64,000 nt of DNA from Candidatus Marinacidobacterales bacterium (GCA_965219415.1 CBDCNP010000002.1:4256001-4320000); one strand, 5' to 3'; numbered from the stretch's first letter, positions 1 to 64,000 are shown. Made by a program: numbers and translations. Notes: generated by a model not told the origin, from the letters alone.

Positions 1-30
1 CACCGAGGGGCTACCGTCGCCGGCGACAAT

Positions 31-1101
31 CTACGCGGCACGGTAGTAGTAGTTGAGAATGCCCCCAAGTCGCTCTCGCGACACGATGGGGCCAGCGTCA
101 TTCGCACTTGCCGGCAGAGGTGTGATGAGCTCGTTGCCGAGACCTTGGTGGTTCCGTTCTGTGTGATAGTGCACTACGTATTCGGTTACTGCTGTCCGTA
201 GGTGTCGCTCACTGAGAGGTACGAAGCGGTCCAGACATTCTCGACGTATGGAGAGAACGAATCTTTCCGCGTAGGCGTTCAGATTCGGACTATTAGCGGG
301 AAGGCGGAGGGGCTTCACGCCTGAATCTCTCAACAGCCCACGTATCGCCTCGGTGAATAGCGGGTCCCGGTCGTGGATGAGGTATCGCTTGCCAAGGAGG
401 AAACCATCCCACATGTCAGTGAGGTTCCTTGCCACCTGCTTCATCCACTCCCCGTTTGGGTCCGAGGTTATCCCACCGATGCATACGCAGCGAGTGGCGA
501 TATCGATGACAAACAGGACATGGTAGCGGACGAGCCCGAACGGGTTCACAACCTCGACCGTGAACAGGTCTGTCGCGGCGATAGCGCCCCAATGAGCCTT
601 GAGGAAGGTGCTCCACGACATGCTCTTGCCCCGCTCCGGGGCAGGTGCGATACCGTGCTCGGCGAGAACCCTCTTGATGGTGTTGCGTCCGAGTTCATGT
701 CCGAGGTTCTTGAGTGCGCCCCGCAGGCGCGTATAGCCCCACGTCGGGTTCTCCCGCGCAACACGTACAATGAGCTCACGGATGTCCTTCGCCGTCGGAG
801 GTCGGCCTGGACTCCGGTTCTTGCTGCCATCGTACTTGGCTGCGATGAGGCAGCGGTACCAGCGCAGCAGCGTAGCGGGTGTGGCAACCGATGCAATCTG
901 GGCCAGCACCTCGCGGCCCAAGGCCTGGGCCTTGACGGCAAGCCTGCGCCGGTCTTCGTCAGAGAGCCTGAGACGCTTGCCCCGAAGCCCGGCTCGGAGC
1001 ACACGGTTCTCCTCTCGCAGGTAATCAATCACATCCTGCTGCTGGCGGTTGACCCAGCCAGCCACAACGAGCAGTAAGAACCGCACGTGGTAGGTCATCA
1101 T
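31..1101 (-). CDS. rve-domain (integrase core) DDE transposase, IS481/IS3-superfamily-like, intact, 356 aa
   Basis: N-terminal HTH region ([12 protein letters not shown]); DDE-type motifs ATDLFTV / IHDRD / NAYAERF; C-terminal [11 protein letters not shown]. Confidence 0.9.
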
Positions 1102-1230
1102 GGAGCTGAAGATAACACCCTCGGTCCAGACGATTGTAGAGCCTACAGCCCTTGGCCCGGTCGCAAAACACAGACGCTAAGCTGTTGATTTATGGCCTAT
1201 TTCAAAAGGGCCGAGTTTTGGCACAGGACG
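1102..1230 (-). mobile_element. Left end ('A-end') of the 356-aa transposase element
   Basis: Terminus CGTCCTGTGCCAAAACTCGGCCCTTTTGAAATAG directly upstream of the ORF; the motif recurs about 20 times and forms the TIR pair of element 43163-44485. Confidence 0.85.
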
Positions 1231-1333
1231 GGATGCTCATGACGACATGGTGACCTGACGACCAACGACCGGGGCGCAGGCGCGGGCCGCCCGTGTCTGC
1301 GCTCATCAGTGCACAGGTGTCTCTTAGGTAGCG

Positions 1334-1922
1334 CTACTCGCGGTCGGGGCACTCGGACTCGGGCTCACGGTGCACCCACTCAGTACCGTTGGCGGTTAGG
1401 ACGATGACGTCGACTGGTCCACCGACCTTGGTGGGCACGCGCTCCGCTTGGCGATCAATGATCGCTACAAGCACCGCGACTATGTCCTGCCTAGACGGCC
1501 TCTCTAGGTCCCCCACACCATCGGGAATACTGACACTGGAGAGGTGGTCAACGATATCGGGCTGTCCCCTGAATATTACCTCACCCTCGGGCAGATCCTC
1601 CCGCGCCGCGATCTCCACGTCCCCACCTGAACTCCTGAACTCTCCAGTGTAAGCAACCGGTCGACCTTCCAACATGAAGCCAAGGATGTACGTGAAGAAG
1701 GCGGGGCCGGTCTCCGGCCTTCCGTTGTGGGCCTCGTTGAAGGCCACTTCCGTTCTGTGATCAAACATCCTGACCCGGTCCCAAAGAGGTACGCCCTCTT
1801 GACGTAGATCCACAGTGATTGCGTCGAGTGAGAATGGCCCCGCGGCGTGACTGACGCCGGCAGCCGCGAACACGATATCCCCGAATTCGCGGACTTTGCA
1901 CGCCGTGACCTGTTCTCGCTGG
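1334..1922 (-). pseudogene. Ntn-hydrolase/proteasome-subunit-like hypothetical protein, 5'-truncated
   Basis: Frame extends upstream of 1873 as CKVREFGDIVFAAAG; C-terminal VGGPVDV; cut by the A-end remnant at about 1923. Confidence 0.45.
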
Positions 1923-2009
1923 CCACGGCCCTTGGTCCGGTCGCAAACACAGACACTAAGCTGCTGATTTATGGTCTATTTCAAAAGGGCCGAGTTTTGG
2001 CACAGGACG
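1923..2009 (-). repeat. Isolated A-end copy
   Basis: Near-identical direct repeat of 1145-1230. Confidence 0.9.
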
Positions 2010-2065
2010 GGGAACGTTTGCTCAAAAACCGTTGCTTAAGGAGAAGATTAGGGACCTTTTCATCT

Positions 2066-3805
2066 TCAGGGCTCAATCTTCCGGTATTCCACCAACGCTG
2101 ACTTGCCGACGATGTCAAGAATGCGCACCGACAACTCGAACCCGTAGGCGTCCGTGAGTCTCATCGGCTTTCCCAGTCGAAAATCTACCGGCTGCTGCCG
2201 CCCCTGATCGATGGCGATGTTGTCCGCGTACAGATACGTCCTGTCATGGGTGTCTCGTATGGGATTCAGGCGACCGCGAAGCCCCGGCAAGTGCCCAGTA
2301 CGTTCAAAAAAAATAGCCGAGCCGCCGTCCGGGAGCGGATTGAGCTCTAATAGAAGACCGCCTTGCCGCGGAATCCACTCCCGCTCGAGCTGTGAGGCAT
2401 ACCCGGCCGCAGCAGCATACACGGTTATCGGAAGATGGGTGCTGTGTAGACCGAAGGCTGCTTCGCCAGCTTCGTCGGTCGTTCCCAGCCTCCAAGTCTT
2501 GTTCGGATGTAGCACCAAAACATCCACTCCTGGCAACGGGTCTCCTTCCGCATGCACCGTGATAATGGCATCCGCCGGTGTAAGTTCCAGTTTGGCGGCG
2601 GGTATGTTCCGGACCACCAAGATGAAGCGTTCCCCCTCCTCAATCAGCTCAGGCTCCGTACCGTTGTGTTTCTGCATCCCTGCGATGATCTTTCGCGGAA
2701 TGCCCATTCCCATGTGCTCAAGATAGCGGTAGTCGCGCATGACCTCTTTAAGGAGGTGGTTCCGGTACGCCCGCGTTCCGGCGCGCATCCGCTCCGGCGT
2801 AATCCCGTTCGGTAGCCTGCCCGGCGATATGATTGCTAACCGGTCGCTATAGAGGCTCAGCTCAACACCTGTGCTAGTCAGCAGGTAGTCTCGATGAATC
2901 AGCGCGTTGACGATGCCTTCGCGAAGAGCCTCGGGGGGATAGGCAGGCTTTTCCACTCGTCTCCCGCCTTCAAGGTCAGCGGTTCCCGGTGCGTTGCGAC
3001 GTACGAACTCTAGCGTCTGCTCAACCAAGCCGTTTTCAACGATCTCGCCGTTTGCATCGAGCAAGGGTGTAATCGGCCCGCGTAAAGCTTTGTGTTCGCG
3101 TGCAGCGTAGTCCTTTTCCGTCCCAAGAAAGGCCATGGCGTCAATCCCAGCATGAGGGAGAAAGCGGTTCGGTGTCTTCCCGAACAACAGCATTCCCCCA
3201 ACGCTGACACCCTCCTCGGTCATGATCTCCGTGTTGACTAGAAGGGTTCTCCAGCCCGCTTCATCATCATCATCAGGCACTTCCTGTTCCCGAACGCGAC
3301 CGAAGTAGTCCTGAAGCCGCCGCCGGTCCAAGTCGGTCATTACAGCTCCCGAAACCGGCTGCAGCTCTGCACGGATTGCCCCGCGCTGCTGAAACAATCG
3401 CCGTAGCTCCTCTTGAGCCGCTTCCCTGCTTTGGGTGCCAACTCGGATGTAGTACTTATTGCCGTTCTGATGCCAGAGGCTGTGAACGTCGAAGCCTCGC
3501 GTCACGCGGACAATCGCCACGTCCTTGCCGGGTTCAACGCCTCGGACAACCTCATAGAACGGGATGATTGCCGGCCTGATCTTGTCACGGCATGTCGTCA
3601 TTACCCATTCTTCGAGATTGCCTCTGGTGATTCCCGATATGCTACCGTCATCTTCAATGCCTAGAAGAATCATCCCGCCTGCAAGGTTCGAGAAGGCGAC
3701 CAGCTCCTTCGCCAGATCGTGGTTTTGTACGGTGTCGCGCTTGAACTCAACACCGGAGTTTTCTCCGTTGTTGACGATTTCCAGCAATTCGGTGTGTGTT
3801 GTCAT
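2066..3805 (-). CDS. Schlafen/AlbA_2 + HATPase_c_4 domain protein with an extra C-terminal domain
   Basis: GENSGVEFK..LAKELVAFSNLAGG.ILLGIEDDG; ALREGIVNALIHRDY..SPGRLP..RN; about 175-aa beta-rich tail. Confidence 0.85.
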   Translation of the reverse strand: MTTHTELLEIVNNGENSGVEFKRDTVQNHDLAKELVAFSNLAGGMILLGIEDDGSISGITRGNLEEWVMTTCRDKIRPAIIPFYEVVRGVEPGKDVAIVRVTRGFDVHSLWHQNGNKYYIRVGTQSREAAQEELRRLFQQRGAIRAELQPVSGAVMTDLDRRRLQDYFGRVREQEVPDDDDEAGWRTLLVNTEIMTEEGVSVGGMLLFGKTPNRFLPHAGIDAMAFLGTEKDYAAREHKALRGPITPLLDANGEIVENGLVEQTLEFVRRNAPGTADLEGGRRVEKPAYPPEALREGIVNALIHRDYLLTSTGVELSLYSDRLAIISPGRLPNGITPERMRAGTRAYRNHLLKEVMRDYRYLEHMGMGIPRKIIAGMQKHNGTEPELIEEGERFILVVRNIPAAKLELTPADAIITVHAEGDPLPGVDVLVLHPNKTWRLGTTDEAGEAAFGLHSTHLPITVYAAAAGYASQLEREWIPRQGGLLLELNPLPDGGSAIFFERTGHLPGLRGRLNPIRDTHDRTYLYADNIAIDQGRQQPVDFRLGKPMRLTDAYGFELSVRILDIVGKSALVEYRKIEP

Positions 3806-3808
3806 GCC

Positions 3809-6487
3809 TCAGAATCCATACTTTGAACGCCGCATCTCGAAGGCATCCTTGCCGCCTTCGAGGATCTCCTCCACCAGCTCACACACCGGCTTCGAATCAA
3901 TAGACCCCATGTGTTCGGTCGCTATTCTGGCTCGCCCTTCTCCAGCTTCTCCCGACGCGGCTAGGCCCAGAATCAACTCCGCATCTCCGAGGACCGGGAT
4001 GTTCGCGTTATGGGTCGAGAAGACGAATTGTCGGCGCCGTTTTTCCTGCCGCATAATCGGCACCACGCCCTCGGTGATAAAGCGGTTGTCGAGATCGTCT
4101 TCCGGCTGATCGACAACAAGAGGGGCTTCAGATTCCAACAGCAACAACAGTAGCACTGCCGTCGCCTTCTGCCCCGTCGACAGGGCTTCCAGCGTCTGCC
4201 ATGTGGGCGGTTCCTCGTCCGCGGCCGTGTTCAGTTCGATCTTGGTCGTTGCAGGAAGGTCCAGTTCCTCAATTCTCATGAACAGCTCCGGGTCTGCTTG
4301 CGAAATTCTTTCGGCAGATCCGGACGGGAACGAGTAGTTTTTCATCAGCGCCTCTTTGCCTCCACGGCAGCGCTGCGCCAAGTCTGGCAGCGAGAGTTGT
4401 TCGACAGACCAGAGCCGCTCCAGAGCGGCGCTCAGATTGCCACCCACCTTACGCAATAGCCGTTCCAGTGGCTCACGATTCCCCGCCATTGTGACTTCAA
4501 CCCGCACGCGGTTACGGAGCTTGCGGGAAACCTTCTTAGCTGCGCTTTGAAATTCGCGGTACTCGCTCGCTTTCGTGTCCTCCCATTCATACAGCAACTT
4601 GCGGCGGTGCGCCTCGTGACTCACCAAGTCGCGTCCCAAGTTCTCTTTTTTCTCCTTTAGCTGCCGTAGCTCTTCAATCTGCTTCCTTAGGCGGATGAAC
4701 TCTGCGCCGTCGATCTTCGACTTCTGTAGCTCACGCAAAAGCTTTTCGTATGTTTTCTCGACGGTCTTGCGTTTCTCCTCCCAGCGGGCTTCAGCCCCTG
4801 CAACGGCACCGTCCGCTTCCGCCAGTGCCTTCTCAAGTTGGTCGGCGATCGTCTTCAGTTTCGTGCTCAGCGTCCCCAAAAACACCGCAATCTCGGCGAG
4901 AAGTTCCGCATTCGGTAGCCCTTCCAGGGCTCTCGGAGCGACAAAAGCTGCATCCACTGGAAGTATCGCGCTCAGTTCACTGTACAACGCGCGCACTGGA
5001 TCAAGACGTTCCCTGACATTGGCGAATACGCGCTCTTCTCGGATAAGGAGGCTCTTTTCCTTCAGGCGTTCTTCTAGACCGGCTTCCTGGAACCGCTTCT
5101 GCGTCTCCTCTAGGTTCGGCAGCGTCGCAAGCCGCTCATCGAACGCTTTCATCTCACGCCGGACATTGATGATGCGGCTACGCGAGCGTTCCAGTTCTAG
5201 CCGGAGCGTCGATTTCCGTCCCGAAAGGGTTGCATCTCGCTCAACGAACCGTTCCAGCAGCACAGTCAGCTTCTCCCGGCTCTTTGTCAGTTCGGAAATC
5301 TCGTGTTGCCCAAACACCTCCACATCCGGCATCACGTCTTTCGGCGAGAGCGTCAACACTTCTCCGGCTTCGTCTTTCACAATCGGGGGATTCGGGACTG
5401 ACCGTTCGATTGTGTAGCGCCGCACGGATGGTTTGTGTGACCGCACCAGCAAGGAGATTTTCGTCCCGGAGCGCAGAACGTGCCGGATAACCCCCTCATG
5501 CGCTTTCCGCGCTTCCTCCCCAAGAGGCTCAAGCCCGAGCACATAGCGCATGCTTTCGATCACGGTCGATTTGCCGGTTCCTCTCCCACCTACCAGGACA
5601 TTCAGGTTGCCGTTGAAGTGAACCGACGTATCGTCGAGAAAACCGCCTTCCCACGTCACCGCCTGGAATTCCGCATGCGGTTCCGGTTGCGGATCGCTGT
5701 TCAGCTGGATGCGAGACTCGGGGTCGAGGAAGGCCTGCCGCAACGCCTCGACCGAGACGCTCGACATCTTGATAAAACACGAGGCACCGTCTTTCTTGAG
5801 GTCCTCAGGGCTATTCACATCCGAGGCGTTTATCACTGCTACGGGGCGCGGGCGCTTGTGTTCCGCATCCTTGTTTTTAAGAATCGGCCGTATATTGTCG
5901 GGCGCGTCTGAAATCGGACCAGCGAGAGCACAAGCCAGAAGATCGGGCGATTTCCAAGCATTCGCACGAGGCTGTCCGTTGAGTTTCCTTAATAGCCCGC
6001 CATCGGCCGCCACATGTGCGGCCACACAGATCGAGCCCCACTCCTTCGCCTGCGCCAGAAGTTCAATGGAATCGAGGCTTCCCGTCGGTGAAGCCGTTTT
6101 CGTATCGTGGACACCGCACTCACCAATGAACCGTTCCAGCATGTCGTCCTTGTCTGGATCGAACAGGCACAAAAAATGCACGCCGTCCTTGGTCACGGCT
6201 TCGAAGCCGCTGAATGCAAACAAGTTCGCGGCTCGGGCAGTCTTCACCAACCCCCTGGATTCGTCAGCCCGGTAGTGGTCCGTGACCCCGATAACCTCGA
6301 TTCCTACCTCGTGGCAAGCATCAACGATGGCCGCGTTGTATTCATCCTCGTTCTTGAACGACGTCGGCTTGTTGTGCCGCCCCAAGTAGGCGAATGGGTT
6401 GACCTGCAAGGCGCAGCTGTAGAACCGTGCACCGCTGGGCAGCTCCAGAGCGGTATTCAGTCGCTCCGATACTGTCTTTATTGCCAT
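3809..6487 (-). CDS. PHP phosphoesterase + ABC/SMC-like ATPase (TrlF-family / Ppl-like defence protein)
   Basis: PHP motifs VTDHY, AAHV, ASD; Walker A GGRGTGKS; coiled coil; LSTGQ signature; VVDQPEDDLD; STHNAN. Confidence 0.85.
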   Translation of the reverse strand: MAIKTVSERLNTALELPSGARFYSCALQVNPFAYLGRHNKPTSFKNEDEYNAAIVDACHEVGIEVIGVTDHYRADESRGLVKTARAANLFAFSGFEAVTKDGVHFLCLFDPDKDDMLERFIGECGVHDTKTASPTGSLDSIELLAQAKEWGSICVAAHVAADGGLLRKLNGQPRANAWKSPDLLACALAGPISDAPDNIRPILKNKDAEHKRPRPVAVINASDVNSPEDLKKDGASCFIKMSSVSVEALRQAFLDPESRIQLNSDPQPEPHAEFQAVTWEGGFLDDTSVHFNGNLNVLVGGRGTGKSTVIESMRYVLGLEPLGEEARKAHEGVIRHVLRSGTKISLLVRSHKPSVRRYTIERSVPNPPIVKDEAGEVLTLSPKDVMPDVEVFGQHEISELTKSREKLTVLLERFVERDATLSGRKSTLRLELERSRSRIINVRREMKAFDERLATLPNLEETQKRFQEAGLEERLKEKSLLIREERVFANVRERLDPVRALYSELSAILPVDAAFVAPRALEGLPNAELLAEIAVFLGTLSTKLKTIADQLEKALAEADGAVAGAEARWEEKRKTVEKTYEKLLRELQKSKIDGAEFIRLRKQIEELRQLKEKKENLGRDLVSHEAHRRKLLYEWEDTKASEYREFQSAAKKVSRKLRNRVRVEVTMAGNREPLERLLRKVGGNLSAALERLWSVEQLSLPDLAQRCRGGKEALMKNYSFPSGSAERISQADPELFMRIEELDLPATTKIELNTAADEEPPTWQTLEALSTGQKATAVLLLLLLESEAPLVVDQPEDDLDNRFITEGVVPIMRQEKRRRQFVFSTHNANIPVLGDAELILGLAASGEAGEGRARIATEHMGSIDSKPVCELVEEILEGGKDAFEMRRSKYGF

Positions 6488-7016: not shown

Positions 7017-7164
7017 CGTCCTGTGCCAAAACTCGGCCCTTTTGAAATAGACCACAAATCAGCAGCTTAGACGCCCTTGGAATCCGCGCAGAATCCAGGG
7101 TATTGCGCGCCGCAGGGCTGACTTCCGACCCATGGGCTCAGCGGATGAATAAATAGAAGGTACA
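7017..7164 (+). mobile_element. About 147-bp A/B hybrid mini-element (MITE), copy 1
   Basis: CGTCCTGTGCC...GGATGAATAAATAGAAGGTACA; near-identical copies at 14769, 59702 and 62471. Confidence 0.85.
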
Positions 7165-7400: not shown

Positions 7401-7640
7401 GCCTGTCCTGAAGATATCCTGTTCGGGAACGTGAATGATTTTCGCTGTAAGGCACTTGAGATAGAACTCGATAGCCATTCCGGTGGCGTTCATCAAGGGC
7501 AAGACGACACCCGTGCCAGAGGATTGACCGCTTAGGATCAGTCGGACATGCTCGTACCGATCTGCCGCGTCCTTTACTTGGGGATTGGAGATTTCCCGAC
7601 GACTTTTCCAATCTTGGGGGTATAGTTCGTCCGTGTCCCC
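7401..7640 (-). pseudogene. HEPN-like protein fragment
   Basis: NATGMAIEFYLKCL resembles the HEPN helix motif; bounded by unrelated DNA. Confidence 0.4.
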
Positions 7641-7921
7641 CTGCTGTGCATCAACGCGCGCCTGACGGCCTCGGGTTCCTTCTGGATCACGCACAGGAGC
7701 GTCGCCGCCGGGCCGCTGACCCGGCGTGTGCCCTGCTCCCATTTCCGATAGCCGGACAGGCTCATGCCCATCAGGGGCGCCATCTGTGCCTGCGTAAGCT
7801 TCGCTTGCTTCCGAACCTCGCGTGGCACTACGGGTGCATGAACGATGGCGGGACCTCCGCCCTTTGCATGGGCCAGAGCCTCTTCGAGCGATTGAATCAA
7901 GTCCTCTCCGAACGTGCTCAT
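7574..7921 (-). CDS. XRE-family HTH antitoxin (HigA-like); 3' tail probably read-through
   Basis: LTQAQMAPLMGMSLSGYRKWEQG; ATGA overlap with the upstream toxin. Confidence 0.85.
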   Translation of the reverse strand: MSTFGEDLIQSLEEALAHAKGGGPAIVHAPVVPREVRKQAKLTQAQMAPLMGMSLSGYRKWEQGTRRVSGPAATLLCVIQKEPEAVRRALMHSRGTRTNYTPKIGKVVGKSPIPK

Positions 7922-8262
7922 TTCTTCTCCTTCTCCTTCCCGGCGGCCTTGATCGCCGCCACAAGCGCGGACACCGTTCGCCGCTCGTACGGTTTCAGGT
8001 CCGTCTTTGCCGACTTTGCATAGGCGAGAAGTGCATAGACCGGCATGTCTTCGCCACCATAGAAGTAGATCACTCGCGCACCGCCTTGCTTGCCACGGCC
8101 CAAGGCCCCGAAACGCAGCTTTCGAACACCGCCCGTTCCCGGTATCTCATCGCCCGCCATGGGATTTTCCGCGAGGAAGTCAATCAGTTCGCGTCTCTCT
8201 GTCTCGCTGAACAGCTTGTCGGCCTGACGGGAAAAGGTCGGGGTTTCGGCCACCGTCTGCAT
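7918..8262 (-). CDS. RelE/HigB-2-family toxin
   Basis: NPMAGDEIPGTGGVRKLRF..GKQGGARVIYF..YAKS. Confidence 0.9.
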   Translation of the reverse strand: MQTVAETPTFSRQADKLFSETERRELIDFLAENPMAGDEIPGTGGVRKLRFGALGRGKQGGARVIYFYGGEDMPVYALLAYAKSAKTDLKPYERRTVSALVAAIKAAGKEKEKK

Positions 8263-8331
8263 CCGACACAATATAACCCAATGGGGCATTCACGGCAATG
8301 CTTGAACAGGATGGGGTGGCGCGCCCGTGGT

Positions 8332-8668
8332 CGTCTGGTCAAAATACTCGAACGCCCAGGAAGTCAGCAGTTTGCACCTTCAAGTGACTCCGGTCCTCCG
8401 CGGAAGGTGTCCGGTGCTCCGCAGAATTCCGATTTGAAACGAGGGTGTCCCGTCCTGTGCCAAAACTCAGCCCTTTTGAAAAGACCACAAATCAGCAGCT
8501 TAGACGCCCTTGGAATCCGCGCAGAATCCTGGGTATTTCGAGCCGCAGGGCTGGCTTCCGACCCCTGGGCTGCGGGTGGCGGGCGACAGGCCCACCGGGG
8601 GTGGTGCACACGGCTGGCTCAAATCGGCTGTGGGGCGAGCTGTAGGCAGCGACCTGCGCACCCCGGAA
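8332..8668. mobile_element. E-end remnant (8332-8381) and partial A/E mini-element (8451-8668)
   Basis: CGTCTGGTCAAAATACTCGAACGCCC, plus an A-end and interior matching 30388-30696. Confidence 0.8.
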
Positions 8669-8714
8669 GTCCCCCATTGGACTGGACTTTACCGGGCAAA
8701 AGAGCGAGTGTCCG

Positions 8715-9149
8715 GTGATGCCGCAGGATACAAGAGTTGGCCGGAGGGTCGTTCTGGACGGTTTGGACCTCGCCAGCCTGCGGCGGGCCTGGGAGCAGAC
8801 CTTTGGGTCCGTTCCGCCAAGCTCGCTCTCACGCGCTCTCCTGCGCCGCGTTCTTGCGTACGAACGCCAATGTCGGACCCATGGGGGGCATTCGGCCGCA
8901 ACCCGACGCGCTCTGGCCGCCATGGCGAACGGCACACCAAAACACTCTGCTCCCGCAGGGTCCGTTTCTGCCGGCACCCATCTCGTCCGCGAGTGGAATG
9001 GCCGCACCTACCAGGTCGAGGTACTCGATAACGGCTATCGGTTCGACGGCAAAACCTACCCGTCCCTCACCGCCATCACAAAGCGAATCACCGGCACACA
9101 CTGGTCAGGACCACGCTTTTTCGGTCTGATGCCCAAGCGCAAGGCCTAA
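8715..9149 (+). CDS. DUF2924-family protein
   Basis: GTHLVREWNG..V...GYRFDGKTYPSLTAITKRITGTHWSGPRFFGL; typical partner gene of large serine recombinases. Confidence 0.85.
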   Translation: MMPQDTRVGRRVVLDGLDLASLRRAWEQTFGSVPPSSLSRALLRRVLAYERQCRTHGGHSAATRRALAAMANGTPKHSAPAGSVSAGTHLVREWNGRTYQVEVLDNGYRFDGKTYPSLTAITKRITGTHWSGPRFFGLMPKRKA

Positions 9150-9150
9150 C

Positions 9151-12100
9151 ATGACGAAAATCCGTTGCGCCATCTATACCCGAAAGAGCGCTGAAGAGGG
9201 TCTCGAACAGGATTTCAACTCCCTCGATGCGCAGCGAGAGGCCTGCGCCGCGTATGTCGCGAGCCAGAAAGCGGAGGGCTGGGTGCTGCTGCCAACCGTC
9301 TACGAGGACGCGGGGATCTCGGGAGGAACCCTGGAGCGCCCGGGCCTACAGCGCTTGCTCGCCGACATCGATGCCGGTCTCGTCGAGCAGATTGTGGTCT
9401 ACAAGGTCGACCGGCTGACCCGTTCCCTCTCCGACTTTGCGAAGCTCGTCGAGCGGCTCGAGGCGGCCGGCGCGGTTTTCGTCTCGGTGACTCAGTCCTT
9501 CAACACCGCGACCAGCATGGGACGACTGACGCTACATATGCTGCTGTCCTTCGCACAATTCGAGCGGGAGGTCACGGCCGAGCGGATCCGCGATAAGGTC
9601 GCTGCCTCCAAGCGCAAGGGACTATGGATGGGCGGCCGCGTACCGCTCGGCTATGAGAAGGACGAGCGCACGCTGCGCATCAACGAGGCTGAGGCCGAAA
9701 CGGTCCGGACGCTCTATGCGCTGTACCGGCAGCACGGAACGCTCCGGCAGGTGAAGGCCGACGCGGACCGTATGGGACTGCGCACCAAGCGACGCTTCGC
9801 CGCGGATGGAACCCTAACGGGCGGGCTGCCGTTCCGTCGCGGACACCTCCACTGCCTGCTGACCAATCCTCTCTACGCCGGCCGCATCCGGCACCAGAGG
9901 CGTGTCTACGAGGGCCAGCATCCATCGATCATTGCTCCGGAGCTCTGGGACATTGAGGCCGAATTCGCGCCCGCGCGAACCGTCGTAGCCGACGCAGAGA
10001 AGCGCCTACCAAAGCACCCACTTCTGTGGCGCGGACTCCCAGTGTCCTGCGCCTTCACACTTGTTTACCCGAAGTCGCTACAAGGCATGCCCGAGAGCCG
10101 GGCACGAACAGAACTGGAAACCTGCAACGACCTGAGATTCTCACAACTATTACCAAAAGAATTAGGGACACAATACCGTCTGTTCGCTGACCTGCACAGC
10201 ACAGCGACCAGCATCGGAACAACAGGAGGGTCAATCCGGACCCTCGCCGACTGTTTACATAGTTTCTGGCTACGTGCAGAAACCAGCAGTTTTGTCGAAG
10301 ATACTATCCGCGAGGCATCCAGCGCAATCGCACGCGCGAGCGAATTCCTGAAGAATGTTGGCGCACTACACCCACATGCGGGAGAGGACAGCGACGCGGC
10401 CGCAACGAGCGCTCTGATCTGGCTGAACGCCCTCCTGTTCCAGGAACTTCTCGCACAAAACTTGGCACCAGAGTCTCTCCCCGAGGAACACCGCAACAAA
10501 CGCATCCGGCCACCGGATCCCGAGGCGGACCCGGATACGCTGAGAGGTCAGTGGAAGGACATCCTCGACATTAACTGGTGGCCAATCTTTCACTACGCAA
10601 CAGAGGCACTTCGATCAGTCCCTTCACGACCGGCTGCGCTTGCACTGTCGGAACTGCAACCTGTAGCACGAACCATCGCGAAGCGCGGCGTGATCCGCCG
10701 CCACGATATCGCCGGACGAATCTTCCATCGCCTGCTGAAGACACGGAAGTTCCTCGCCACCAACTACACGACGATTCCGGCAGCCATTCTCCTGGCGAGA
10801 CTTGCGTTCGACCGTGAAGCAGAACCTTGGAAAAAGATCGTGTGGGAGAACCCCAAGGCAATTGGCAAACTGCGAATCGCCGACCCGGCGTGCGGCACCG
10901 GCACCTTGCTGATGGCGGCCGTCCAGGAGGTGCTAAAACAACATCGGCGTCACGCCAAACAGACAGAAGAACCACAAACGGTGCGCACGTTGCTGGAACA
11001 GACAATCCATGGGTACGACGTCGTTCCGGCGGCGATCCACCTTACCGCGGCCACCCTGGCAATGGCAGAGTCTCGGCAGGTCGTGAGTGACATGCCTCTA
11101 TACTGGATGCCGCACGACGTCAAGATACGGCCGCGCCTCGGCAGCCTTGACTTCCTTGCGAGGTCAACAGGAAAAGGCCAAGCGGACCACTTGCCGATGT
11201 TCCCGGAAGCCACGGAAGCTCCTGTCCGGACAACAGGAACTGGCAAGCGCAAGCACGACGTGTTGTTCATGCCAGATTGCGACTTGGTGATAGCGAACCC
11301 GCCATACACACGCGCCGGCGGGCCGGGCAGCAGAGAAAACACTGCCTGGAACCCAATCTTCGGCTCCGTCCTGTCAAAGAAGGACGCGGACAAAATGAAC
11401 CGAGCGCTCCAGCGAACCCTCAACGGCACGCCGGCAAGCACGTACGCCGGACTCGGTTCCGCATTCATAACACTCGCCGACGAGAAACTGAAACCAGGTG
11501 GCCGACTAGCATTCGTGCTACCCGCAACAGCTCTGACCGGAAGCCGCTGGGCACCAATACGGAAACTGCTGCTCGATAAGTACAACATCGAATGGGTTGT
11601 CGTGAGTCACGACGAAAGGAACCGGGCCGCAAGGCGCGGGTTGCCAGGAAGACTATATGTAGGATTCTCTGAATCAACCCGGATCGCCGAAACGCTCATC
11701 GTCGCTACGAAGGCGGCGCACCCTGGAGACCACCGCAAGCGGAGCGGCGTTACCCGATTCGTAAACCTCCGGCGCAACCCTGACGAGCCAATCGACGCGA
11801 TTGCAATCGCACGTGCCATTCTGTCGATGAAGACGCGACCGGGATCCAGGCCAAATGTGGAAGTCTCAGTCGGATCAACTATCTGGGGAGAAATACAGTA
11901 TGTCCCACAAGCAAAGCTAAACGAGGAGGCGTGGCTACACACCGTGTTCGTGCAATCACGACTGGCCGAAGCCACCCTCGCCCTGCAGAATGGAAGAATT
12001 CTCAACATCACGAACAAGGAATTACGGATCCCGATCACTCGCCTCGGGACGAGGCACGACCTCGGACCCTACGAAATGCAGATCAAGAATCCAAAGCAAG

Positions 12101-13479: not shown

Positions 13480-13501
13480 CGTGGACTCCTGTCTCCCAAA
13501 G

Positions 13502-15566: not shown

Positions 15567-15590
15567 AAACTTTGATTATACCTGCTTTGC

Positions 15591-15707: not shown

Positions 15708-15737
15708 TGGGGATTATATACGAAAGTCCCGAAAGCG

Positions 15738-25991: not shown

Positions 25992-25994
25992 GGA

Positions 25995-47132: not shown

Positions 47133-47146
47133 GGTACTGTCAAGTT

Positions 47147-51597: not shown

Positions 51598-51718
51598 CGC
51601 GATCTTCTTTTTTTAGGATCACAGCCCCGAATTCCCGAACTTCCAACATCGGGACACACAGACACTAAGCTGCTGATTGATGGTCTATTTCAAAAGAGCC
51701 GAATTTTGGCACAGGACG
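51598..51718. repeat. F-end (to 51623) and A-end (to 51718)
   Basis: GCGATCTTCTTTTTTTAGGATCACA; ..TTTTGGCACAGGACG. Confidence 0.8.
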
Positions 51719-51764: not shown

Positions 51765-52436
51765 TGAACAGGTCTGTCGCAGCGATAGCGCCCCAATGAG
51801 CCTTGATGAAGGTGCTCCACGACATGCTCTTGCCCCGCTCCGGGGCAGGCGCGATACCGTGGTCGGCGAGGATCCTCTTGATAGTGTTGCGTCCGAGTTC
51901 TCATGTCCTAGGTTCTTGAGTGCGCCTTGCAGGCGCGTATATCCCCACGTCGGGTTCTCCTGCGCCACGCGCACAATGAGCTCACGGATGTCCTTCGCCG
52001 TCGGAGGTCGGCCTGGGCTCCGGTTCTTGCTGCCATCGTACTTGGCTGCGATGAGGCAGCGGTACCAACGCAGAAGCGTAGCGGGTGTGGCAACGGACGC
52101 AATCTGGGCCAGCGCCTCCCGGCCCAAAGCCTGGGCCTTGACCGCGAGCCTGCGCCGCTCGTCGTCCGAGAGCCTGAGACGCTTGCCCCGAAGCCCGGCT
52201 CGGAGCACACGGTTCTCCTCTCGCAGGTAATCAATCACATCCTGCTGCTGGCGGTTGACCCAGCCAGCCAGAACGAGCAGTAGGAATTGCACGTGGTACG
52301 TCATGATGGCTCCGAAGATAACACCCTCGGGCCAGGCGATTGTGAAGCCCACGGCCCTTGGCCCGGTCGTAAAACACAGACTCTAAGCTGTTGATTTATG
52401 GCCTATTTCAAAAGGGCCGAGTTTTGGCACAGGACG
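51765..52436 (-). mobile_element. 5' half of the 356-aa transposase element with A-end
   Basis: Near-identical to 561-1230; frameshift near 51900. Confidence 0.9.
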
Positions 52437-52834: not shown

Positions 52835-54262
52835 TTACCTCCAACTGAGCGTGTCGAAACGTTCGCCGGCTTTCATGACTAGGTGAATCTTGTGCCACGC
52901 CCAGCGCTCTTCGAGCGGATTGGCCTGGAGTGATATCATGTCGGCGAGCTTGCCGGGCTCCAAGGTTCCGAGATCGTCACCTAAACCGATGTTTTGAGCG
53001 CCGACCGCGGTGCCGGCACGGATCGCATCCATCGGTGTGAAGCCGCCCTCGACCAAGAACTCGATGGCGTTTCCAATGCCGCCGACGTAGAGCGGGTCCA
53101 TCCCAAGACTAATAGGAACACCTGCCTCGAAGGCCGCCAGAACTTGGGTCTGTTGTGTCCGGATAGAAGGGGAGAAGTCGCGTCCCCGGCGGTTCTCGTC
53201 GAAGTCATCGTAGGGGCGATCTTCGGTCTCGACCTCCGGGTGAGCCTTTCGGTGCTCGAAATATTGTTTCTTTTCGAAATCGATCCAATCTCCCGGCCCG
53301 CGCGCACCGGTGTCCATGAACTCCCAAGTGGACTCGTCCGGTCGGAAGCCAACGTACACCAGCGGAGTGAAACAGACGGCGGTACCGCGCTCTAGCATCA
53401 TGTCGATAATCTCCGGGGTCATGGGCCGGGCATGCTCGATGGTATCGACGCCGGCTAGAATGGCGGTCTTCATCGAACGGCCCCATGTACCCGTCGCATG
53501 GGCCGCCACTTTCATGCCCAGACGGTGCGCCTCGTCGACGATCGCTACCATCTCGGGAAGGGTCACCGAGGACTCTTCGGGAGTTTGACCGTACAAACTC
53601 ACCTTGATCCATTCCGCCCCGTGATCGAAGTTCTGCCGGACCTTTTGTGTGGACTCCCAGTTGGGCAGGGGCACCAAGTGAAGCCCGCTGGGATCATCCA
53701 CCCACCGTCCAGATGTCGTCGGGCTCGTCGAACCGAGTAGGCCCACGCCGCTGATGAGAAGACGGGGGCCGGGGATGAGACCTTTCCGGATCCCTTCTCG
53801 CAGGTGTTGGTCGTTGTGATGAGCCTCTCCGGTCACTCTCATCGTCGTTACGCCGCTTAGAAGAGAAACACGCGCGTGCCGAACCATACGAATGGTTTGG
53901 ATTGCGTCGTGCTGCATCATCTGTTCCATCATTCCCGGATTTCCAAGCTTGGGCGTGCCGGAGTCCAGAGCGACTCCATAGCGGATGCTCAGATGGTTGT
54001 GTCCATCGATGAGGCCAGGCAAGAGCGTTTCGCCGGGAAGGTCGATCACGTTTGCGTCATCGGGAATCCGAACGGAAGACTGGGGACCAACCGCTTCAAT
54101 CCGATTCCCGCGAACGACGACCACTCCGTCGATGATGGGCGGCCCGCCGGTGCCATCGATGACGCGGCTGGCCTTGATGGCGATAGGAGATTGCTGCGCT
54201 CCCGTCGTGACTGACGAAGACAGGAACAAGACGAGAGTCAATAAACAACCTATAATTTTCAT
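52835..54262 (-). CDS. Secreted amidohydrolase
   Basis: Signal peptide; LPGLIDGHNH, AAHA, IEH, GKLAD. Confidence 0.9.
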   Translation of the reverse strand: MKIIGCLLTLVLFLSSSVTTGAQQSPIAIKASRVIDGTGGPPIIDGVVVVRGNRIEAVGPQSSVRIPDDANVIDLPGETLLPGLIDGHNHLSIRYGVALDSGTPKLGNPGMMEQMMQHDAIQTIRMVRHARVSLLSGVTTMRVTGEAHHNDQHLREGIRKGLIPGPRLLISGVGLLGSTSPTTSGRWVDDPSGLHLVPLPNWESTQKVRQNFDHGAEWIKVSLYGQTPEESSVTLPEMVAIVDEAHRLGMKVAAHATGTWGRSMKTAILAGVDTIEHARPMTPEIIDMMLERGTAVCFTPLVYVGFRPDESTWEFMDTGARGPGDWIDFEKKQYFEHRKAHPEVETEDRPYDDFDENRRGRDFSPSIRTQQTQVLAAFEAGVPISLGMDPLYVGGIGNAIEFLVEGGFTPMDAIRAGTAVGAQNIGLGDDLGTLEPGKLADMISLQANPLEERWAWHKIHLVMKAGERFDTLSWR

Positions 54263-54309
54263 GAATACACTCCAGGACGGGCTCAAACCCGCGAAGCGAA
54301 TAATAGACG

Positions 54310-54396: not shown

Positions 54397-54583
54397 TGTC
54401 CATCATCATTATTTGTCCGGGACTGGACTCTAGGCCCGGACTGCCCTTGAGCACATGCTGGAGAGCGTGGTCAGCGCGCGAGGGAAGGTTGTCCATCATC
54501 ATTATTAATCCGGGACTGGACTCTAGGGCCCGGACCGCCCTCGAGCACATGCTGGAGAGCGTGGTCAGCGCGCGAGGGAAGGT
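54397..54583. repeat. About 93-bp tandem duplication of the element right end
   Basis: TGTCCATCATCATTATT...GAGGGAAGGT occurs twice. Confidence 0.9.
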
Positions 54584-55775
54584 GCTGAGGACGAACTTCT
54601 CGGCGACCAGCCGAGTAACGCGAGCGACCAAGCTGACTCAGGCTGCCTCTCGCCACTCGTATCGATGGTGCAATCCACCGACTCGCGGCAGTGCGACTAC
54701 TTTCGCCGTAGGAGACGGTCGGTGCGTGACCGTTCTCAAGCTCGGTGTGTCCTTGTTCAGCCCCAAGTGGCAACGGTCCTCATGATAGTAGCTGATGTAA
54801 GCTCGCACGAGCCGGATGAGATGACATGCACCGAGAACCACGACGCGCTCAAGGAGCTCGCGACGGCAGCTGCCGACCCACCGCTCCGCGGTTCCGTTTT
54901 GCCATGGGCTGCGAAACGAAGTGCGAACGGGCTTTGTGCCCGTTGCTTTGATGAACTCGATGACCGCAGCGTTAAAGATGAAGTCGCGATCGAAGATAAG
55001 ATATTTCGGAGCGGTGTCGTAGGGAAACGCCTCGCGTAGTTGCTGAATAACCCAAGCAGACGTCGGGTGGAACGTGGCGTTGAAGTGAACGATGTGCCGA
55101 CGGCCGTGCTCGATGACGAAGAAGCCGTACAGCATCCGGAGCGAAGCGGTGGGCACGGTGAACAGATCCATGGCCGCGATATCGTCTTTATGGTTGCGCA
55201 AGAAAGCCATCCATCGCTTCAGCTGGTCGGGCTCCGCGGGATGCCGCGGCAGATATCGCGACACCGTGATCTCGGAGATGATGAAACCGAGCTTGGTGAG
55301 CTCAGCATGGATGCGTGGCGCCCCCCAGCCGTCTTGCGCCATCGTGCGGACGAGGCGACGAATCTCGGCATCAATCCGAGGCCGACCGGGATGGCGGCGC
55401 TGCGAGATCTTTGCCCAGTACCGTCGGAATCGGTCGCGATGCCAACGGGCTACGGTGTCCGCGTGGACGATGAGCAGGCGGCTCGCCCACACGGGCCACG
55501 AACCTCGAAGGGCAACCCAGAAAGCTCGTTCCGTGTCGTCGAGCGGTGGGCGTGGGCGCTCTTTCTTCAGCGCCGTCACTTGCTGCCGCAAAGCGACGTT
55601 CTCCAACACCAGATCGGCGCGGCGCCGACACATCGCCCGAATGGCACGGACGCCAAGTGAGACGAGGAAGACAACAACGTTGAGCATAGCGGCGGAGTTT
55701 CGCCGTCTTCGGCCCGGAATTCAAGCGGAGCGTAAGTCCTTGATTTCGTGGGCGGAGCAGTTTTGACGATGCACA
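54490..55775 (-). mobile_element. Complete rve element, type 2 (C-type TIRs)
   Basis: TGTCCATCATCA / TGACGATGCACA termini. Confidence 0.85.
54638..55687 (-). CDS. rve-domain DDE transposase, intact, 349 aa
   Basis: WGAPRIH, AMDLFTV, IFDRD, PWQNGTAER, GGLHHRY. Confidence 0.9.
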   Translation of the reverse strand: MLNVVVFLVSLGVRAIRAMCRRRADLVLENVALRQQVTALKKERPRPPLDDTERAFWVALRGSWPVWASRLLIVHADTVARWHRDRFRRYWAKISQRRHPGRPRIDAEIRRLVRTMAQDGWGAPRIHAELTKLGFIISEITVSRYLPRHPAEPDQLKRWMAFLRNHKDDIAAMDLFTVPTASLRMLYGFFVIEHGRRHIVHFNATFHPTSAWVIQQLREAFPYDTAPKYLIFDRDFIFNAAVIEFIKATGTKPVRTSFRSPWQNGTAERWVGSCRRELLERVVVLGACHLIRLVRAYISYYHEDRCHLGLNKDTPSLRTVTHRPSPTAKVVALPRVGGLHHRYEWREAA

Positions 55776-58876: not shown

Positions 58877-58970
58877 CGGTCGCAAACACAGACACTAAGC
58901 TGCTGATTGATGGTCTATTTCAAAAGGGCGAGTTTTGGCACAGGACGGGATCAAGTTTTGGCACAGGACG
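58877..58970 (-). repeat. A-end with tandemly duplicated tip
   Basis: AGTTTTGGCACAGGACG ends at both 58947 and 58970. Confidence 0.9.
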
Positions 58971-59701: not shown

Positions 59702-59848
59702 CGTCCTGTGCCAAAACTCGGCCCTTTTGAAATAGACCACAAATCAGCAGCTTAGACGCCCTTGGAATCCGCGCAGAATCCAGGGTATTTCGCGCCGCAG
59801 GGCTGACTTCCGACCCATGGGCTGGCGGATGAATAAATAGAAGGCACA
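59702..59848 (+). mobile_element. A/B mini-element copy 3
   Basis: 147 bp, matches 14769-14915. Confidence 0.9.
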
Positions 59849-60023: not shown

Positions 60024-60497
60024 ATGCTTGAGTTGTTGACTGCGTTACTTACGCCTCTGATCGCTGCTATTGCGGTATACATTGCCTATCAGCAATGGCA
60101 AACCAACCGCCGAAGACTCGATGTCGACCTCTATGACCGCAGGCTGCGAATATACGAAACCGTCACCAAGTATATCAGTGCTGTGCTGACAACCCTCCAT
60201 CCGACGTTGGAAGACCTTCTTGAGTTTCGGAGGTCTACCGCAGAGGCTGATTTTCTTTTTGGATCTGATATCAGGAAGTACTTGGACGACCTATTCGCGC
60301 ACGGCCTCGAACTACGAAAGTGGCAGGAAAAATACCGGGACTCAACGCAAGACTACCCAGCAGACGACGATCACAACACGGTCGTTGAAGGACAAACCTC
60401 GGAATCCTCTTGGTTTGCCGACCAACACGAGATAGCGCTCCGGCGATTCAAGGAATACTTGAACCTTCTGCCAGAAAAGCGGTGCTTCCGCCATTAA
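60024..60497 (+). CDS. Hypothetical membrane protein; last codons from the MITE
   Basis: TP.IA.IAVYIAYQQW..L.DRRL.IY..EADFLFG. Confidence 0.7.
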   Translation: MLELLTALLTPLIAAIAVYIAYQQWQTNRRRLDVDLYDRRLRIYETVTKYISAVLTTLHPTLEDLLEFRRSTAEADFLFGSDIRKYLDDLFAHGLELRKWQEKYRDSTQDYPADDDHNTVVEGQTSESSWFADQHEIALRRFKEYLNLLPEKRCFRH

Positions 60498-60646
60498 GTG
60501 TTGGTGAGATGGCGCTAACACTTTACGGTGCATTAAATTACAACCAAAATAACGCTCGTGACCTTCGCTGCGCACTAAATGGAGCGTAAGCGCCTATTTT
60601 GCAAAGGGATGCGCACACATCACCAACAGTAAATGGCGCAAGCACC
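60481..60646 (-). mobile_element. G1 MITE
   Basis: 166 bp with TIRs. Confidence 0.9.
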
Positions 60647-62168: not shown

Positions 62169-62470
62169 CGTCGTGTCCAAAAATACAAACGAACTCAAGA
62201 CTCGCGCGCCGGGACGTTTCGGATTAGAGGTGTCTAGTGTGCATCGTCAAAACTGCTCCGCCCACGAAATCAAGGACGTACGCTCCGCTTGAATTCTCCG
62301 GGCCGAAGACGGCGAAACTCCGCCGCTATGCTCGACGTTGTTGTCTTCCTCGTCTCACTTGGCGTCCGTGTCATTCGGGCGATGTGTCGGCGCCGCGCCG
62401 ACCTGGTGTTGGAGAACGTCGCTTTGCGGCAGCAAGTGACGGCGCTGAAGAAAGAGCGCCCACGCCCACC
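62169..62470 (+). mobile_element. D-end, C-end (62238) and 5' fragment of the type-2 transposase
   Basis: Matches the reverse complement of 55545-55775. Confidence 0.85.
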
Positions 62471-62617
62471 TGTGCCTTCTATTTATTCATCCGCCAGCCC
62501 ATGGGTCGGAAGTCAGCCCTGCGGCGCGAAATACCCTGGATTCTGCGCGGATTCCAAGGGCGTCTAAGCTGCTGATTTGTGGTCTATTTCTAAAGGGCCG
62601 AGTTTTGGCACAGGACG
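62471..62617 (-). mobile_element. A/B mini-element copy 4
   Basis: 147 bp, inverted. Confidence 0.9.
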
Positions 62618-62626
62618 GGTAAACCG

Positions 62627-62974
62627 TCAATGAGCTTTTTCCCCTTGTTCCTCTGGTACTTGGATCTGGGGACTGCTCGTCTGGCTTTTGCCTGTAGACC
62701 TTAGGTACGCTTCAAGCTTTTCGTCTGCATCGACCGCGAGTTCACCGCGTTCGGTGTAGACACCGATCTCCCGCGCTAGGTCATCCGCTCGTGCCGGGAT
62801 GAAGGCCGTCTCACCTTGGACGCGGCGGATGATGTCCTGCAGTGTTGTGTCGGCATCTGTTCGTTCCTGCGCTCTTTTTCGGTAGTTTTTTGCTGCATCG
62901 GCCATCAGTGTGGTGCCAACATATGTGGCAGCGAGAAGCATCAAGGCGAGAATCACAGACAGTAATGGGCGCAT
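62627..62974 (-). CDS. Hypothetical protein with N-terminal TM/signal segment
   Basis: ORF with RBS-like AAGGA. Confidence 0.5.
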   Translation of the reverse strand: MRPLLSVILALMLLAATYVGTTLMADAAKNYRKRAQERTDADTTLQDIIRRVQGETAFIPARADDLAREIGVYTERGELAVDADEKLEAYLRSTGKSQTSSPQIQVPEEQGEKAH

Positions 62975-63725
62975 GGGTCTGTTCCTTTTTTTGGTTCGCT
63001 CCCCCGGTGATCGTAAGTGGTCATCGGGCCAGTCGGCTAGAACAACCTACGATTAACCAACGCTGAAGACCACTGCGATAGTGAACGCATCGTGACGATT
63101 GGAAGTCTTCATATGAATGCTCCTTTTTCCAGCAAGGGAGCCGATTACTCGTAGCGTGAGTGGGCTCCTTATAAGGCTCGCCGGCCCCCGGAATTGGGTG
63201 CCGGGCCAGTTGCTAGACAAACGCTGCATTTGCAGGGTTCCCCGTCTATTCCCCCCGGGAAAGGGGGTGTTTTATTCAACAGGTGACCCGACGTCGGATC
63301 AGCGTTTGTCTAGCGCTACGGAATGTAGCAGAATCGAGAGTGGAAGTTCAAGAGGGGGGTTTCAGGCGGTCAAGCCCTAATTTTCCTGTCAAATCTCCGC
63401 ATGGTTCCCGAACTCGGTTTGACCCCGCCCGGGTTTTGTGGATGACTTTGCCCAGGAAAAGTGGACAGGTTGATTATCTCGCATGAGCAGTTTTGAGGTC
63501 ATGAATCCGTTCGAACACCCCGTATGGTGTACGTCGAGCTCGACGTCGGCCTGTGGAGGATCGATGACCGGATCTGGGCGAACGCGAGGATTCGATGGGC
63601 CGCCAGCCGAAGTCAATGCCACGACGATACGAAACCCACGCGGCGGCTCGGATGGCACTCGAACGTATCTACTCAGGCAGCCGCACGATAGTAATAACGA
63701 GGTAGGCCGCCGAGTCGCTCGCGGC

Positions 63726-63768
63726 TGTGCCTTCTATTTATTCATCCGGCGCGCCCCGAACTTGATTG
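63726..63768 (+). repeat. B-end stub
   Basis: TGTGCCTTCTATTTATTCATCCGG..GAACTTGATT. Confidence 0.85.
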
Positions 63769-64000
63769 AAGCGAGTGCCTGGATGCGTATTGCGTCGTCT
63801 TCCGGGAAAAGCTCAATTCAGCGAGCAAGAACCCGGGCCTCGAGGGTCACCGCAAGATCCGCAGGCCCCGGGCGCCTCAGCTGCCGCCGCCCCGTTTCCA
63901 CTGCTGACCGCAAAGACTGAAAGCTGCTTTTCCAGCTTGTCGCTCTCGCAGGAAGGACAGCGCGGCGCGTCCTCGCTCGAACTCAGGACAAGCGATTCGA

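Follow-up and report, generated by a model that had tools for sequence, protein, structure and literature searches.

How do pieces of unrelated genes come to be joined, again and again and often at the exact base, to the ends of transposable elements? The question is raised by a stretch of 64,000 bp from a Candidatus Marinacidobacterales genome (G000:C3:4256001-4320000, the whole of which is called the window here), for which a preliminary description had proposed an integron-like platform, in which the ends of elements with a DDE transposase would be dedicated, reusable joining sites that capture gene-sized cassettes. The window is part of a compartment of about 1.6 Mb saturated with insertion sequences (IS) and MITEs (miniature inverted-repeat transposable elements) in a genome of 8.05 Mb. 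Our preferred reading, to which we give a probability slightly above one half (about 0.55), is that it represents an IS junkyard shaped by recombination and deletion, with no dedicated gene-capture machine. On this reading, and with the same confidence, the compartment would be a dispensable region of a sponge-associated acidobacterial genome, of which the window is a typical slice, and the DNA between the ends would be a patchwork of native duplicates, copies from relatives and foreign scraps. An IS graveyard shaped by deletions had been mentioned as an alternative to the platform, and it fits the data better.

The assembly is a metagenome-assembled genome (MAG) of 8,046,490 bp in three contigs (C1, C2 and C3), with 59% G+C and an estimated contamination of 8.45%; the labels of runs holding the stretch include sponge metagenome, and a genome of the same genus (G001) has only about 6.3 Mb. 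The termini of the type called A are found once on C1, 35 times on C2 and 490 times on C3, where they are concentrated between 4.1 Mb and the contig end at 5.69 Mb, and in a few islands. Exact 18-mers with at least five occurrences make up 32% of this stretch of C3, 10% of the rest of the contig and 25% of the window, and 4 of the 49 tRNA genes are located in the IS-dense stretch. When the window is compared with the genome by BLAST, 61.5% of its DNA recurs elsewhere, and about 70 termini are marked by sharp pile-ups of alignment ends. An Rfam scan gave no family up to the gathering score. The A-type transposase reaches 93-99% amino acid identity in long-contig MAGs titled Candidatus Marinacidobacterales, and about 60% in other Acidobacteriota, Myxococcota and other phyla; the name Marinacidobacterales occurs in none of the papers of the literature searched.

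The older element families of this compartment are rve-type or IS1-like. IS-A (1428/1429 bp, A ends) encodes a transposase of 356 aa with a Pfam rve_3 domain (39.8 bits, cut-off 26.5) that stays below the NCBIfam cut-offs for IS481 (98.5 bits against 224) and IS3 (81.3 against 160); its N-terminal domain has weak IS630/Tc3 matches. IS-C (1286 bp, 47 full copies genome-wide) also encodes an rve_3 transposase, of 349 aa, and IS-G (1200 bp, 29 full copies) has a frame of 404 aa that falls short of the NCBIfam IS1 cut-off (84.5 bits against 100), and that weakly matches rve_3 and the zinc-binding domain of IS1/IS1595 (19.8 bits, cut-off 28). An IS110 element passes its own NCBIfam cut-off (293.3 bits against 140), with both DEDD_Tnp_IS110 and Transposase_20 domains of Pfam, and no IS6 model is among the NCBIfam matches. 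Copies of the old IS are about 2-3% diverged from their reference, and most keep an open frame (at least 327 aa in 43 of 47 IS-C, at least 353 aa in 25 of 29 IS-G). Short, non-coding, multicopy units with IS-like ends, thus MITEs, comprise 70 copies of 147 bp, 36 of 178 bp, 84 of 166 bp and 14 of 317 bp. The 317-bp unit has two A ends, a 313-bp unit has A and E ends, and the 147/148-bp and 178-bp units have A and B ends. On visual comparison, B is similar to the left end of IS-C (15 of 22 bases) and A to its right end; B ends never pair with B ends either, and the A-B units thus have the appearance of ordinary MITEs belonging to an IS whose two ends differ. In other phyla, distant relatives of IS-A (loci L038-L079) carry the terminal repeats CGT-nn-(T/G)GTGCC, with a constant CG at both outer ends, from which a fixed 2-bp CG duplication, comparable to the TA of IS630/mariner, appears possible.

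What are the ends themselves? The inventory given by the preliminary description largely survives a motif search: all 20 A ends lie at the places listed (CGTCCTGTGCCAAAAC with at most two mismatches yields 20 matches, 0.05 being expected by chance), ten on each strand, and the 10 B, 5 C and 3 E ends are recovered in the same numbers, while "4 or more" F ends become six at up to two mismatches. The D ends are real, their number ("about 9") reducing to six exact matches plus D-like variants, for example at 50209. A seventh family, G (GGTGCTTSCGC, the termini of the IS1-like element), had been overlooked despite 15 matches in the window. Two further statements, that only two elements have both ends and that only two transposase genes are intact, have to be abandoned. 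Both ends are present in IS-C, IS-G, a 1323-bp A-type IS, a unit with D ends on both sides, and MITEs (the 147-bp A-B unit four times, the 178-bp A-B unit once, the 313-bp A-E unit twice, the 166-bp G unit three times), and five frames are open (those of 356, 349 and 404 aa, and two of 417 aa from IS110 elements). Among 617 A ends genome-wide, 384 resemble at least five other ends over less than 200 bp only, and about 30 extend over 1.3-1.45 kb; miniature elements account for most of them. In the window, most "ends" are MITEs or remnants of 17-130 bp. One mosaic, in which 23 bp of A are joined to 100 bp of a G end, has been amplified to 39 copies.

The flanks of A ends show a symmetric preference (..aCCC outside each end), and nearly all ends retain the preferred flank motif. 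A hidden palindromic host repeat was considered as the A target and rejected: the patterns CCGTCC..GGACGG and ACCCGGGT are similarly rare on all contigs, so CGTCC is part of the A element. Terminal repeats are also recurrent targets: at 16 loci, G ends follow base 10 of the A repeat, and at several loci B and C ends follow base 21. Terminal-repeat remnants of 17-23 bp are common (in the window at 32972-32992, 15692-15708 and 58948-58970).

If these junctions go back to transposition, is any footprint of it left? Target-site duplications (TSDs) were scanned at offsets from -8 to +8 and lengths of 2-10 bp, the exact ends then being set by BLAST for the 8-bp test. The absence of TSDs was confirmed in the window, and it extends to the old families genome-wide: none was found in 295 complete elements (A 11, C 47, G 29, X 4, and 70, 36, 84 and 14 MITEs of 147, 178, 166 and 317 bp), matches of three bases being at chance, and the 204 complete MITEs taken separately also gave none. 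IS481 elements make direct target duplications of 4-15 bp and IS1 elements of 8-9 bp. None of the 11-13 full copies of IS-A or of its 14 derivatives of 317 bp carries a TSD. For IS-G, junctions inside the A terminal repeat are of one type at 16 loci and of the complementary type at three, and the two types overlap by 8 bp, which suggests that IS-G makes an 8-bp duplication; the two halves never surround one and the same copy, neither in the 29 full elements nor in the 84 MITEs of 166 bp. That the two sides of an end are unrelated was likewise verified genome-wide. None of the 106 old-family elements with a flank inside another known repeat has collinear flanks, and the joined flanks of 132 complete elements, searched against the genome, gave no clean empty site; very often, one of the joined flanks proves to be a repeat that resembles its other copies exactly up to the junction and no further. 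The flanks of A, B and C ends are compositionally biased, which makes a search for partner flanks unreadable for those ends. Distant IS-A relatives show inverted repeats in about half of 26 loci and a clear TSD in none, and the IS-C relatives of about 80% identity in G001 and G018 are too few and too unclear for a TSD call.

Younger families in the same contigs provide a control. H1, H2 and H3 (1373, 1386 and 1435 bp, 29-41 full copies each, 99.3-99.5% identical, on all contigs) carry exact 8-bp TSDs in 16 of 31, 30 of 41 and 22 of 29 copies (68 of 101), for example at C1:13631-15007, C1:23058-24455 and C1:175887-177326, and TSD-bearing copies also occur inside the compartment (C3 5142167, 4378878 and 5000829). 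In a fourth young family, H4, 5 copies out of 13 carry a TSD of 3 bp. Thirteen copies of H1-H4 have a flank in a known repeat, and three of these are nested and collinear with an 8-bp overlap. Since the young families do show their TSDs, the assembly and the tests work, and misassembly is an unlikely cause of the missing footprints, least of all for MITEs of 150 bp.

The cargo between the ends is similarly informative. Genes had been described as cut exactly at termini, and this is the case for the methylase (HsdM), AbiU2 and amidohydrolase genes; a CocE gene at 52437 was not confirmed, neither of the two frames tested there having a Pfam match. The methylase piece covers positions 194-464 of 723 of its profile (N6_Mtase positions 2-138 of 311), AbiU2 lacks sequence near its N-terminus only (positions 2-185 of 193 are present), and the amidohydrolase piece (42707-43161) resembles a portion of the whole gene at 52835-54286 to 85%. 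Other internal gene fragments are a HlyD gene starting at profile position 106 and a carbonic anhydrase with positions 2-73 of 156.

Are the boundaries of such pieces fixed, as cassettes would require? The RlpA-like piece cut at 14916 runs on for at least 130 bp in G001 and G002 (99% identity); a second copy at C3:4.50 Mb continues for 20 bp and then breaks, and the missing flank is nowhere in the genome. Four other copies of an ABC-transporter operon piece continue past its end at 28700, where no IS terminus lies. The left end of the same piece continues in G003 and in this genome's paralogue, and is cut about 12 bp further in in G018. The right end of a 5.3-kb cargo abuts position 218 within IS-G (junction 23258), not a terminus. 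This cargo (17949-23258) is a duplicate, 99.1-99.8% identical, of C3:2358516-2367843, thus at least one piece has been gained rather than left over; the native locus at 2.36 Mb, with its MFS, ornithine cyclodeaminase and racemase genes, has since been interrupted by young TSD-bearing IS elements, and the duplicate in the window is intact. Other pieces point to relatives: the ABC operon piece shares 99% identity with its copy in G018, 97% with that in G003 and 93% with the paralogue in this genome, and G018, of another family by the genome coding used, has an orthologue of its own that is only 70% identical, as against its 99% copy. The interval 30672-31304, which includes pieces and their MITE junctions, is found at 96-99% identity in G003 and G018, and window 7506-8445 at 99% in G016. 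G007, on which no conclusion here depends, has one match of 75%, inside the 65-76% range of orthologues, and one of 68%. The methylase and AbiU2 pieces have no DNA match among 20 relatives.

Element copies are themselves mosaics, resulting from exchange between copies. The correlation between the pairwise distances of left and right halves is 0.43 for IS-G (0.93 for interleaved columns, used as a control), 0.02 for the 147-bp MITE (0.51) and 0.49 for IS-C (0.64), and local site incompatibility is below that of permuted alignments (p = 0.000, 0.023 and 0.007 for IS-G, the 147-bp MITE and IS-C, respectively).

How could such a landscape have been built? Older families (rve-type A, C, D, E and F, and the IS1-like G) and their miniature derivatives would have accumulated in a dispensable region, each junction between an end and its flank arising by ordinary transposition into a preferred target motif. 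The many similar copies would later have recombined with each other, and with DNA from co-resident relatives carrying the same elements, and IS-associated deletions would have trimmed the intervening DNA. Recombination among copies together with IS-associated deletion would explain that the flanks of one element stem from different events, that target duplications are lost, and that genes stop at termini. The order of these events and the respective shares of recombination and of transposase-made deletion we infer; they would account for the observed anatomy, missing footprints with their controls, mosaic copies and variable cargo ends. Precedents are available for several of these steps: shared mobile elements can serve as homology for the formation of mosaic regions (PMC3410848), and IS-dense clusters with IS-bounded rearrangements are reported from a young symbiont (PMC3914690).

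Several observations sit uneasily with this scenario. The zero count of TSDs is very sharp for elements diverged by about 2-3% and with mostly open transposase frames, where random recombination after insertion is expected to leave some TSD-bearing copies. Neighbours of the same family in direct repeat are not depleted, contrary to what strong recombinational deletion would produce (direct/inverted pairs: 14/14 for IS-C, 28/18 for the 147-bp MITE, 22/29 for the 166-bp MITE). Partner halves of G duplications with unique flanks are no commoner than chance, so plain inversions are insufficient, and one has to suppose either extensive deletion or exchange with other genomes. TSDs are also missing in three relatives (all 8 full copies of IS-G and all 3 of IS-C), and this lack could be an intrinsic property of the elements. 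The mosaic signal could stem from gene conversion without exchange of flanks, crossover and conversion giving the same picture here. Lastly, the evidence at the level of reads consists of k-mer contigs, which carry no information on long-range order.

An intrinsic property is precisely what the strongest competitor of recombination at shared repeats assumes, namely that copy-in (replicative) or IS26-like reactions are the sole way in which the old families move, and simple, TSD-flanked insertion never occurs; each intrachromosomal event would then delete or invert DNA or fuse it with another circle, and the transposases would make the breakpoints and shuttle segments. We regard this as possible, if doubtful. 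It would account for the absence of TSDs in all 295 elements though most transposase frames are open, for the lack of collinearity in all 106 cases, for the TSDs missing likewise from all 11 copies in relatives and, by eye, in distant relatives of IS-A, and for the preferred flank motif kept at nearly all ends. A single case was seen of a segment (C3:4162620-4177227, 14.6 kb) that is bounded by two G ends facing inwards and bears one and the same 8-bp sequence at either extremity, the pattern that would be expected of a DNA circle fused in by replicative transposition. For IS26, it is reported that its reactions never leave simple insertions (PMC4471558) and that translocatable units insert beside another IS26 (PMC4196232). 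Inverted partner duplications, expected in about half of intramolecular events, are at chance for G, however; directly oriented neighbours are not in excess as they are in IS26 arrays, the ends belong for the most part to MITEs or remnants rather than to whole IS, and the mosaic copies are not needed by this model. The rve-type A and C elements moreover resemble IS3 and IS481, families that transpose by copy-out-paste-in and leave TSDs. A wider form of the same idea, in which the compartment-restricted IS-A, IS-C and IS-G (mostly with open transposase frames) and their MITEs never insert simply, and build, by footprint-free fusion, deletion and exchange at ends only, a constantly turned-over megabase-scale region where co-resident sponge Acidobacteriota of different genera swap chromosomal fragments, seems to us unlikely; it would amount to an IS26-like mode of life in unrelated transposase families, on the scale of a genome.

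The integron-like platform is the least supported reading, and highly improbable. Termini do bound cargo at many junctions, without TSDs and with flanks that are never collinear, one cargo piece has been gained as a duplicate of a locus elsewhere, and the same junctions between ends and cargo recur at 96-99% identity in other genera. Mapping the end motifs genome-wide, as had been suggested, bears out their clustering in the C3 compartment instead of an even spread; the cargo includes both a native duplicate and pieces shared with other genera, a mixture that does not support the platform. The platform nevertheless failed every test run, of polarity, boundaries, terminus-free junctions and remnant ends: the ends have no polarity, cassette boundaries are not fixed (RlpA piece, ABC operon), junctions at 28700 and 23258 have no terminus at all, internal gene fragments are frequent among the pieces, the end families involved number at least seven, unrelated to each other and one of them IS1-like, and the pattern spans 1.6 Mb plus islands rather than one locus. 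No tyrosine-recombinase domain was found with Pfam in the 50 frames scanned, a part of those in the window. The serine recombinase of element X (see below) was also considered as a possible joiner of ends; the right end of X is not a B end. An assembly artefact, with the contig threaded wrongly through repeats of a mixed population, is likewise very hard to credit. The contamination estimate speaks for it, as does the depth of neighbouring unique segments in one run (about 4, 60 and 24-33), a difference which suggests that strains differ in content. Against it, 99%-identical IS copies of 1.4 kb keep their exact 8-bp TSDs (68/101) in the same contigs, TSDs are also lacking in 147-178-bp MITEs, which any long read spans, and the same junctions are present in other assemblies and in k-mer contigs from four runs of two studies. 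The latter cover the unique segments without differences and reach into the repeats at 30387/30388 and 32516/32517 by 21-26 nt, under the 31 nt of the bridging threshold.

The features of the window are collected in Table 1. Element X is about 3.06 kb long, and begins with an A-like left end and 128 bp common to the 147-bp MITE, followed by a gene for a large serine recombinase of 553 aa; its right end is neither an IS end nor a B end. It has at least seven copies in the genome (C1:1120689-1122191, which holds the sole A-type end of contig C1, and six on C3), and relatives contain many more that are 92-97% identical. The open reading frame 9151-12747 (1198 aa) is a chimera, because X breaks off at 9951 and continues in frame into a methylase gene; as several open frames here are such chimeras of element and cargo, they need care from annotators. 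The gene pair at 2066-6487 is syntenic in two 3-Mb relatives (G011 and G017, 68-71% identity) and is possibly a defence pair; in PADLOC, the ATPase matches Ppl with 120.8 bits, and the first protein has a weak pAgo-associated match. The two IS110 elements are 96% alike, the first being adjoined by an internal piece of IS-A (216 bp) and by 440 bp that partially repeat the IS110 element itself (34594-36776). The composite unit at 32517-32992 has the usual motifs on both outer flanks (..GACCC / GGGTC..).

Table 1. Elements, remnants and cargo along the window (positions counted from its first base).
Feature	Position	Strand	Remarks
IS-A	1-1230	-	starts 198 bp left of the window; 356-aa frame 31-1101; 94% identical to reference 202-1428
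Solo A end, 86 bp	1924-2009	-	
Cargo, two whole genes	2066-6487	-	Schlafen/AlbA_2 + HATPase_c_4 protein (579 aa); AAA/SMC-like ATPase (892 aa)
147-bp A-B MITE	7017-7164	+	
Element X, left 1.5 kb	8448-9951	+	A-like end, then 553-aa large serine recombinase gene; cut at 9951
IS3-like orfA fragment	12774-13501	-	HTH_Tnp_1, HTH_21; about 40 copies
166-bp G MITE	13502-13667	+	
A-end fragment, 112 bp	14657-14768	+	adjoins next A end
147-bp A-B MITE	14769-14915	+	
RlpA-like gene piece	14916-15708	-	cut at 14916; ends in 17-bp B-end remnant 15692-15708
IS-G, complete, 1200 bp	16507-17706	+	IS1-like; 404-aa frame 16530-17744 on minus strand
166-bp G MITE, fragment	17826-17948		
Cargo, four genes	17949-23258	-	MFS, DHDPS, ornithine cyclodeaminase and alanine-racemase-like genes
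IS-G without first 217 bp	23259-24241	+	cargo junction inside the IS, no terminus there
D-end fragment	24418-24468		
178-bp A-B MITE	24594-24771	+	
ABC-transporter operon piece	24772-28700	-	FtsX, FtsX, ABC_tran, 5'-cut HlyD; both ends cut
AbiU2-like gene	29618-30385	-	cut near N-terminus by MITE at 30386
313-bp A-E MITE	30386-30697	+	
313-bp A-E MITE, second copy	31299-31611		
N6 DNA methylase internal fragment	31612-32516	+	both sides cut
Composite unit	32517-32992		A end of 134 bp; other repeat of 232 bp (32651-32882); B-type end (32883-32971); outer 21 bp of inverted A end
IS110-family element	34594-36121	-	417-aa transposase
166-bp G MITE	36780-36945		
D-end fragment	38005-38076		
238-bp unit	38503-38740		D ends on both sides
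Amidohydrolase fragment	42707-43161	-	cut at 43162
A-type IS variant, 1323 bp	43163-44485	-	transposase broken into frames 43312-43962 and 43991-44500
IS110-family element, second copy	47133-48660	+	417-aa transposase
D-end fragment	50211-50305		
166-bp G MITE, fragment	50446-50558		
Solo A end	51656-51718		
IS-A, 3' 670 bp	51766-52436	-	
IS-C left-end remnant, 93 bp	54397-54489		directly before complete IS-C
IS-C, complete, 1286 bp	54490-55775	-	349-aa rve_3 transposase 54638-55687
A end inside first 23 bp of other A-type end	58877-58970	-	
147-bp A-B MITE	59702-59848	+	
166-bp G MITE	60481-60646		
D-end fragment	62169-62217		
IS-C right-end piece, 233 bp	62238-62470	-	between a D fragment and an A-B MITE, abutting both
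147-bp A-B MITE	62471-62617	-	

What does such a compartment add to what is known? IS expansions in host-associated bacteria are already documented. What is distinct here is that about one fifth of an 8-Mb genome forms a separate IS/MITE compartment, that complete elements in their hundreds, a good number of them with an open transposase gene, are footprint-free, younger ones in the same DNA keeping their TSDs, and that fragments of the compartment are near-identical in other genera. Were the cause intrinsic to the transposases, IS26-style shuffling would extend to other families and to environmental symbionts; were it recombination at shared repeats, the compartment would be a clear natural example of mobile elements providing the homology for interspecies gene flow. 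Under either cause, the locus is not an integron-like invention.

The comparison with known systems is instructive in this respect. The genome of the young, host-restricted symbiont Sodalis pierantonius SOPE (PMC3914690) is alike in the massive expansion of several IS families, in dense tracts, broken copies and rearrangement borders, and in being host-associated; here, the tract is about 1.6 Mb long, MITEs and end remnants dominate, the old families lack TSDs and collinear flanks while the young ones are normal, and pieces are 96-99% identical in other genera. The resistance regions of IS26/IS6 elements, with their translocatable units and intramolecular transposition of the replicative kind (PMC4471558, PMC4196232), share a DDE element, copies usually devoid of TSDs with unrelated segments between them, and element-made deletions and inversions, but the transposases are of rve_3 and IS1-like type in the present case, there is no preference for direct orientation, the ends are mostly fragments, and inverted partner duplications were not seen. 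Integron arrays also consist of unrelated gene-sized pieces between repeated sites, whereas here the 50 frames scanned include no integrase beside an attI, there are neither structured attC-like sites, nor a common orientation, nor fixed cassette ends, and what separates the pieces are termini from at least seven transposon families. In mosaic regions formed by homologous recombination at shared mobile elements after DNA uptake (PMC3410848), IS or MITEs held in common can provide the homology by which DNA of other species is brought in; in the present genome, the element copies are mosaics and cargo is common to several genera. That work is experimental and concerns resistance elements in Acinetobacter, whereas the process is only inferred here, and on a far larger scale.

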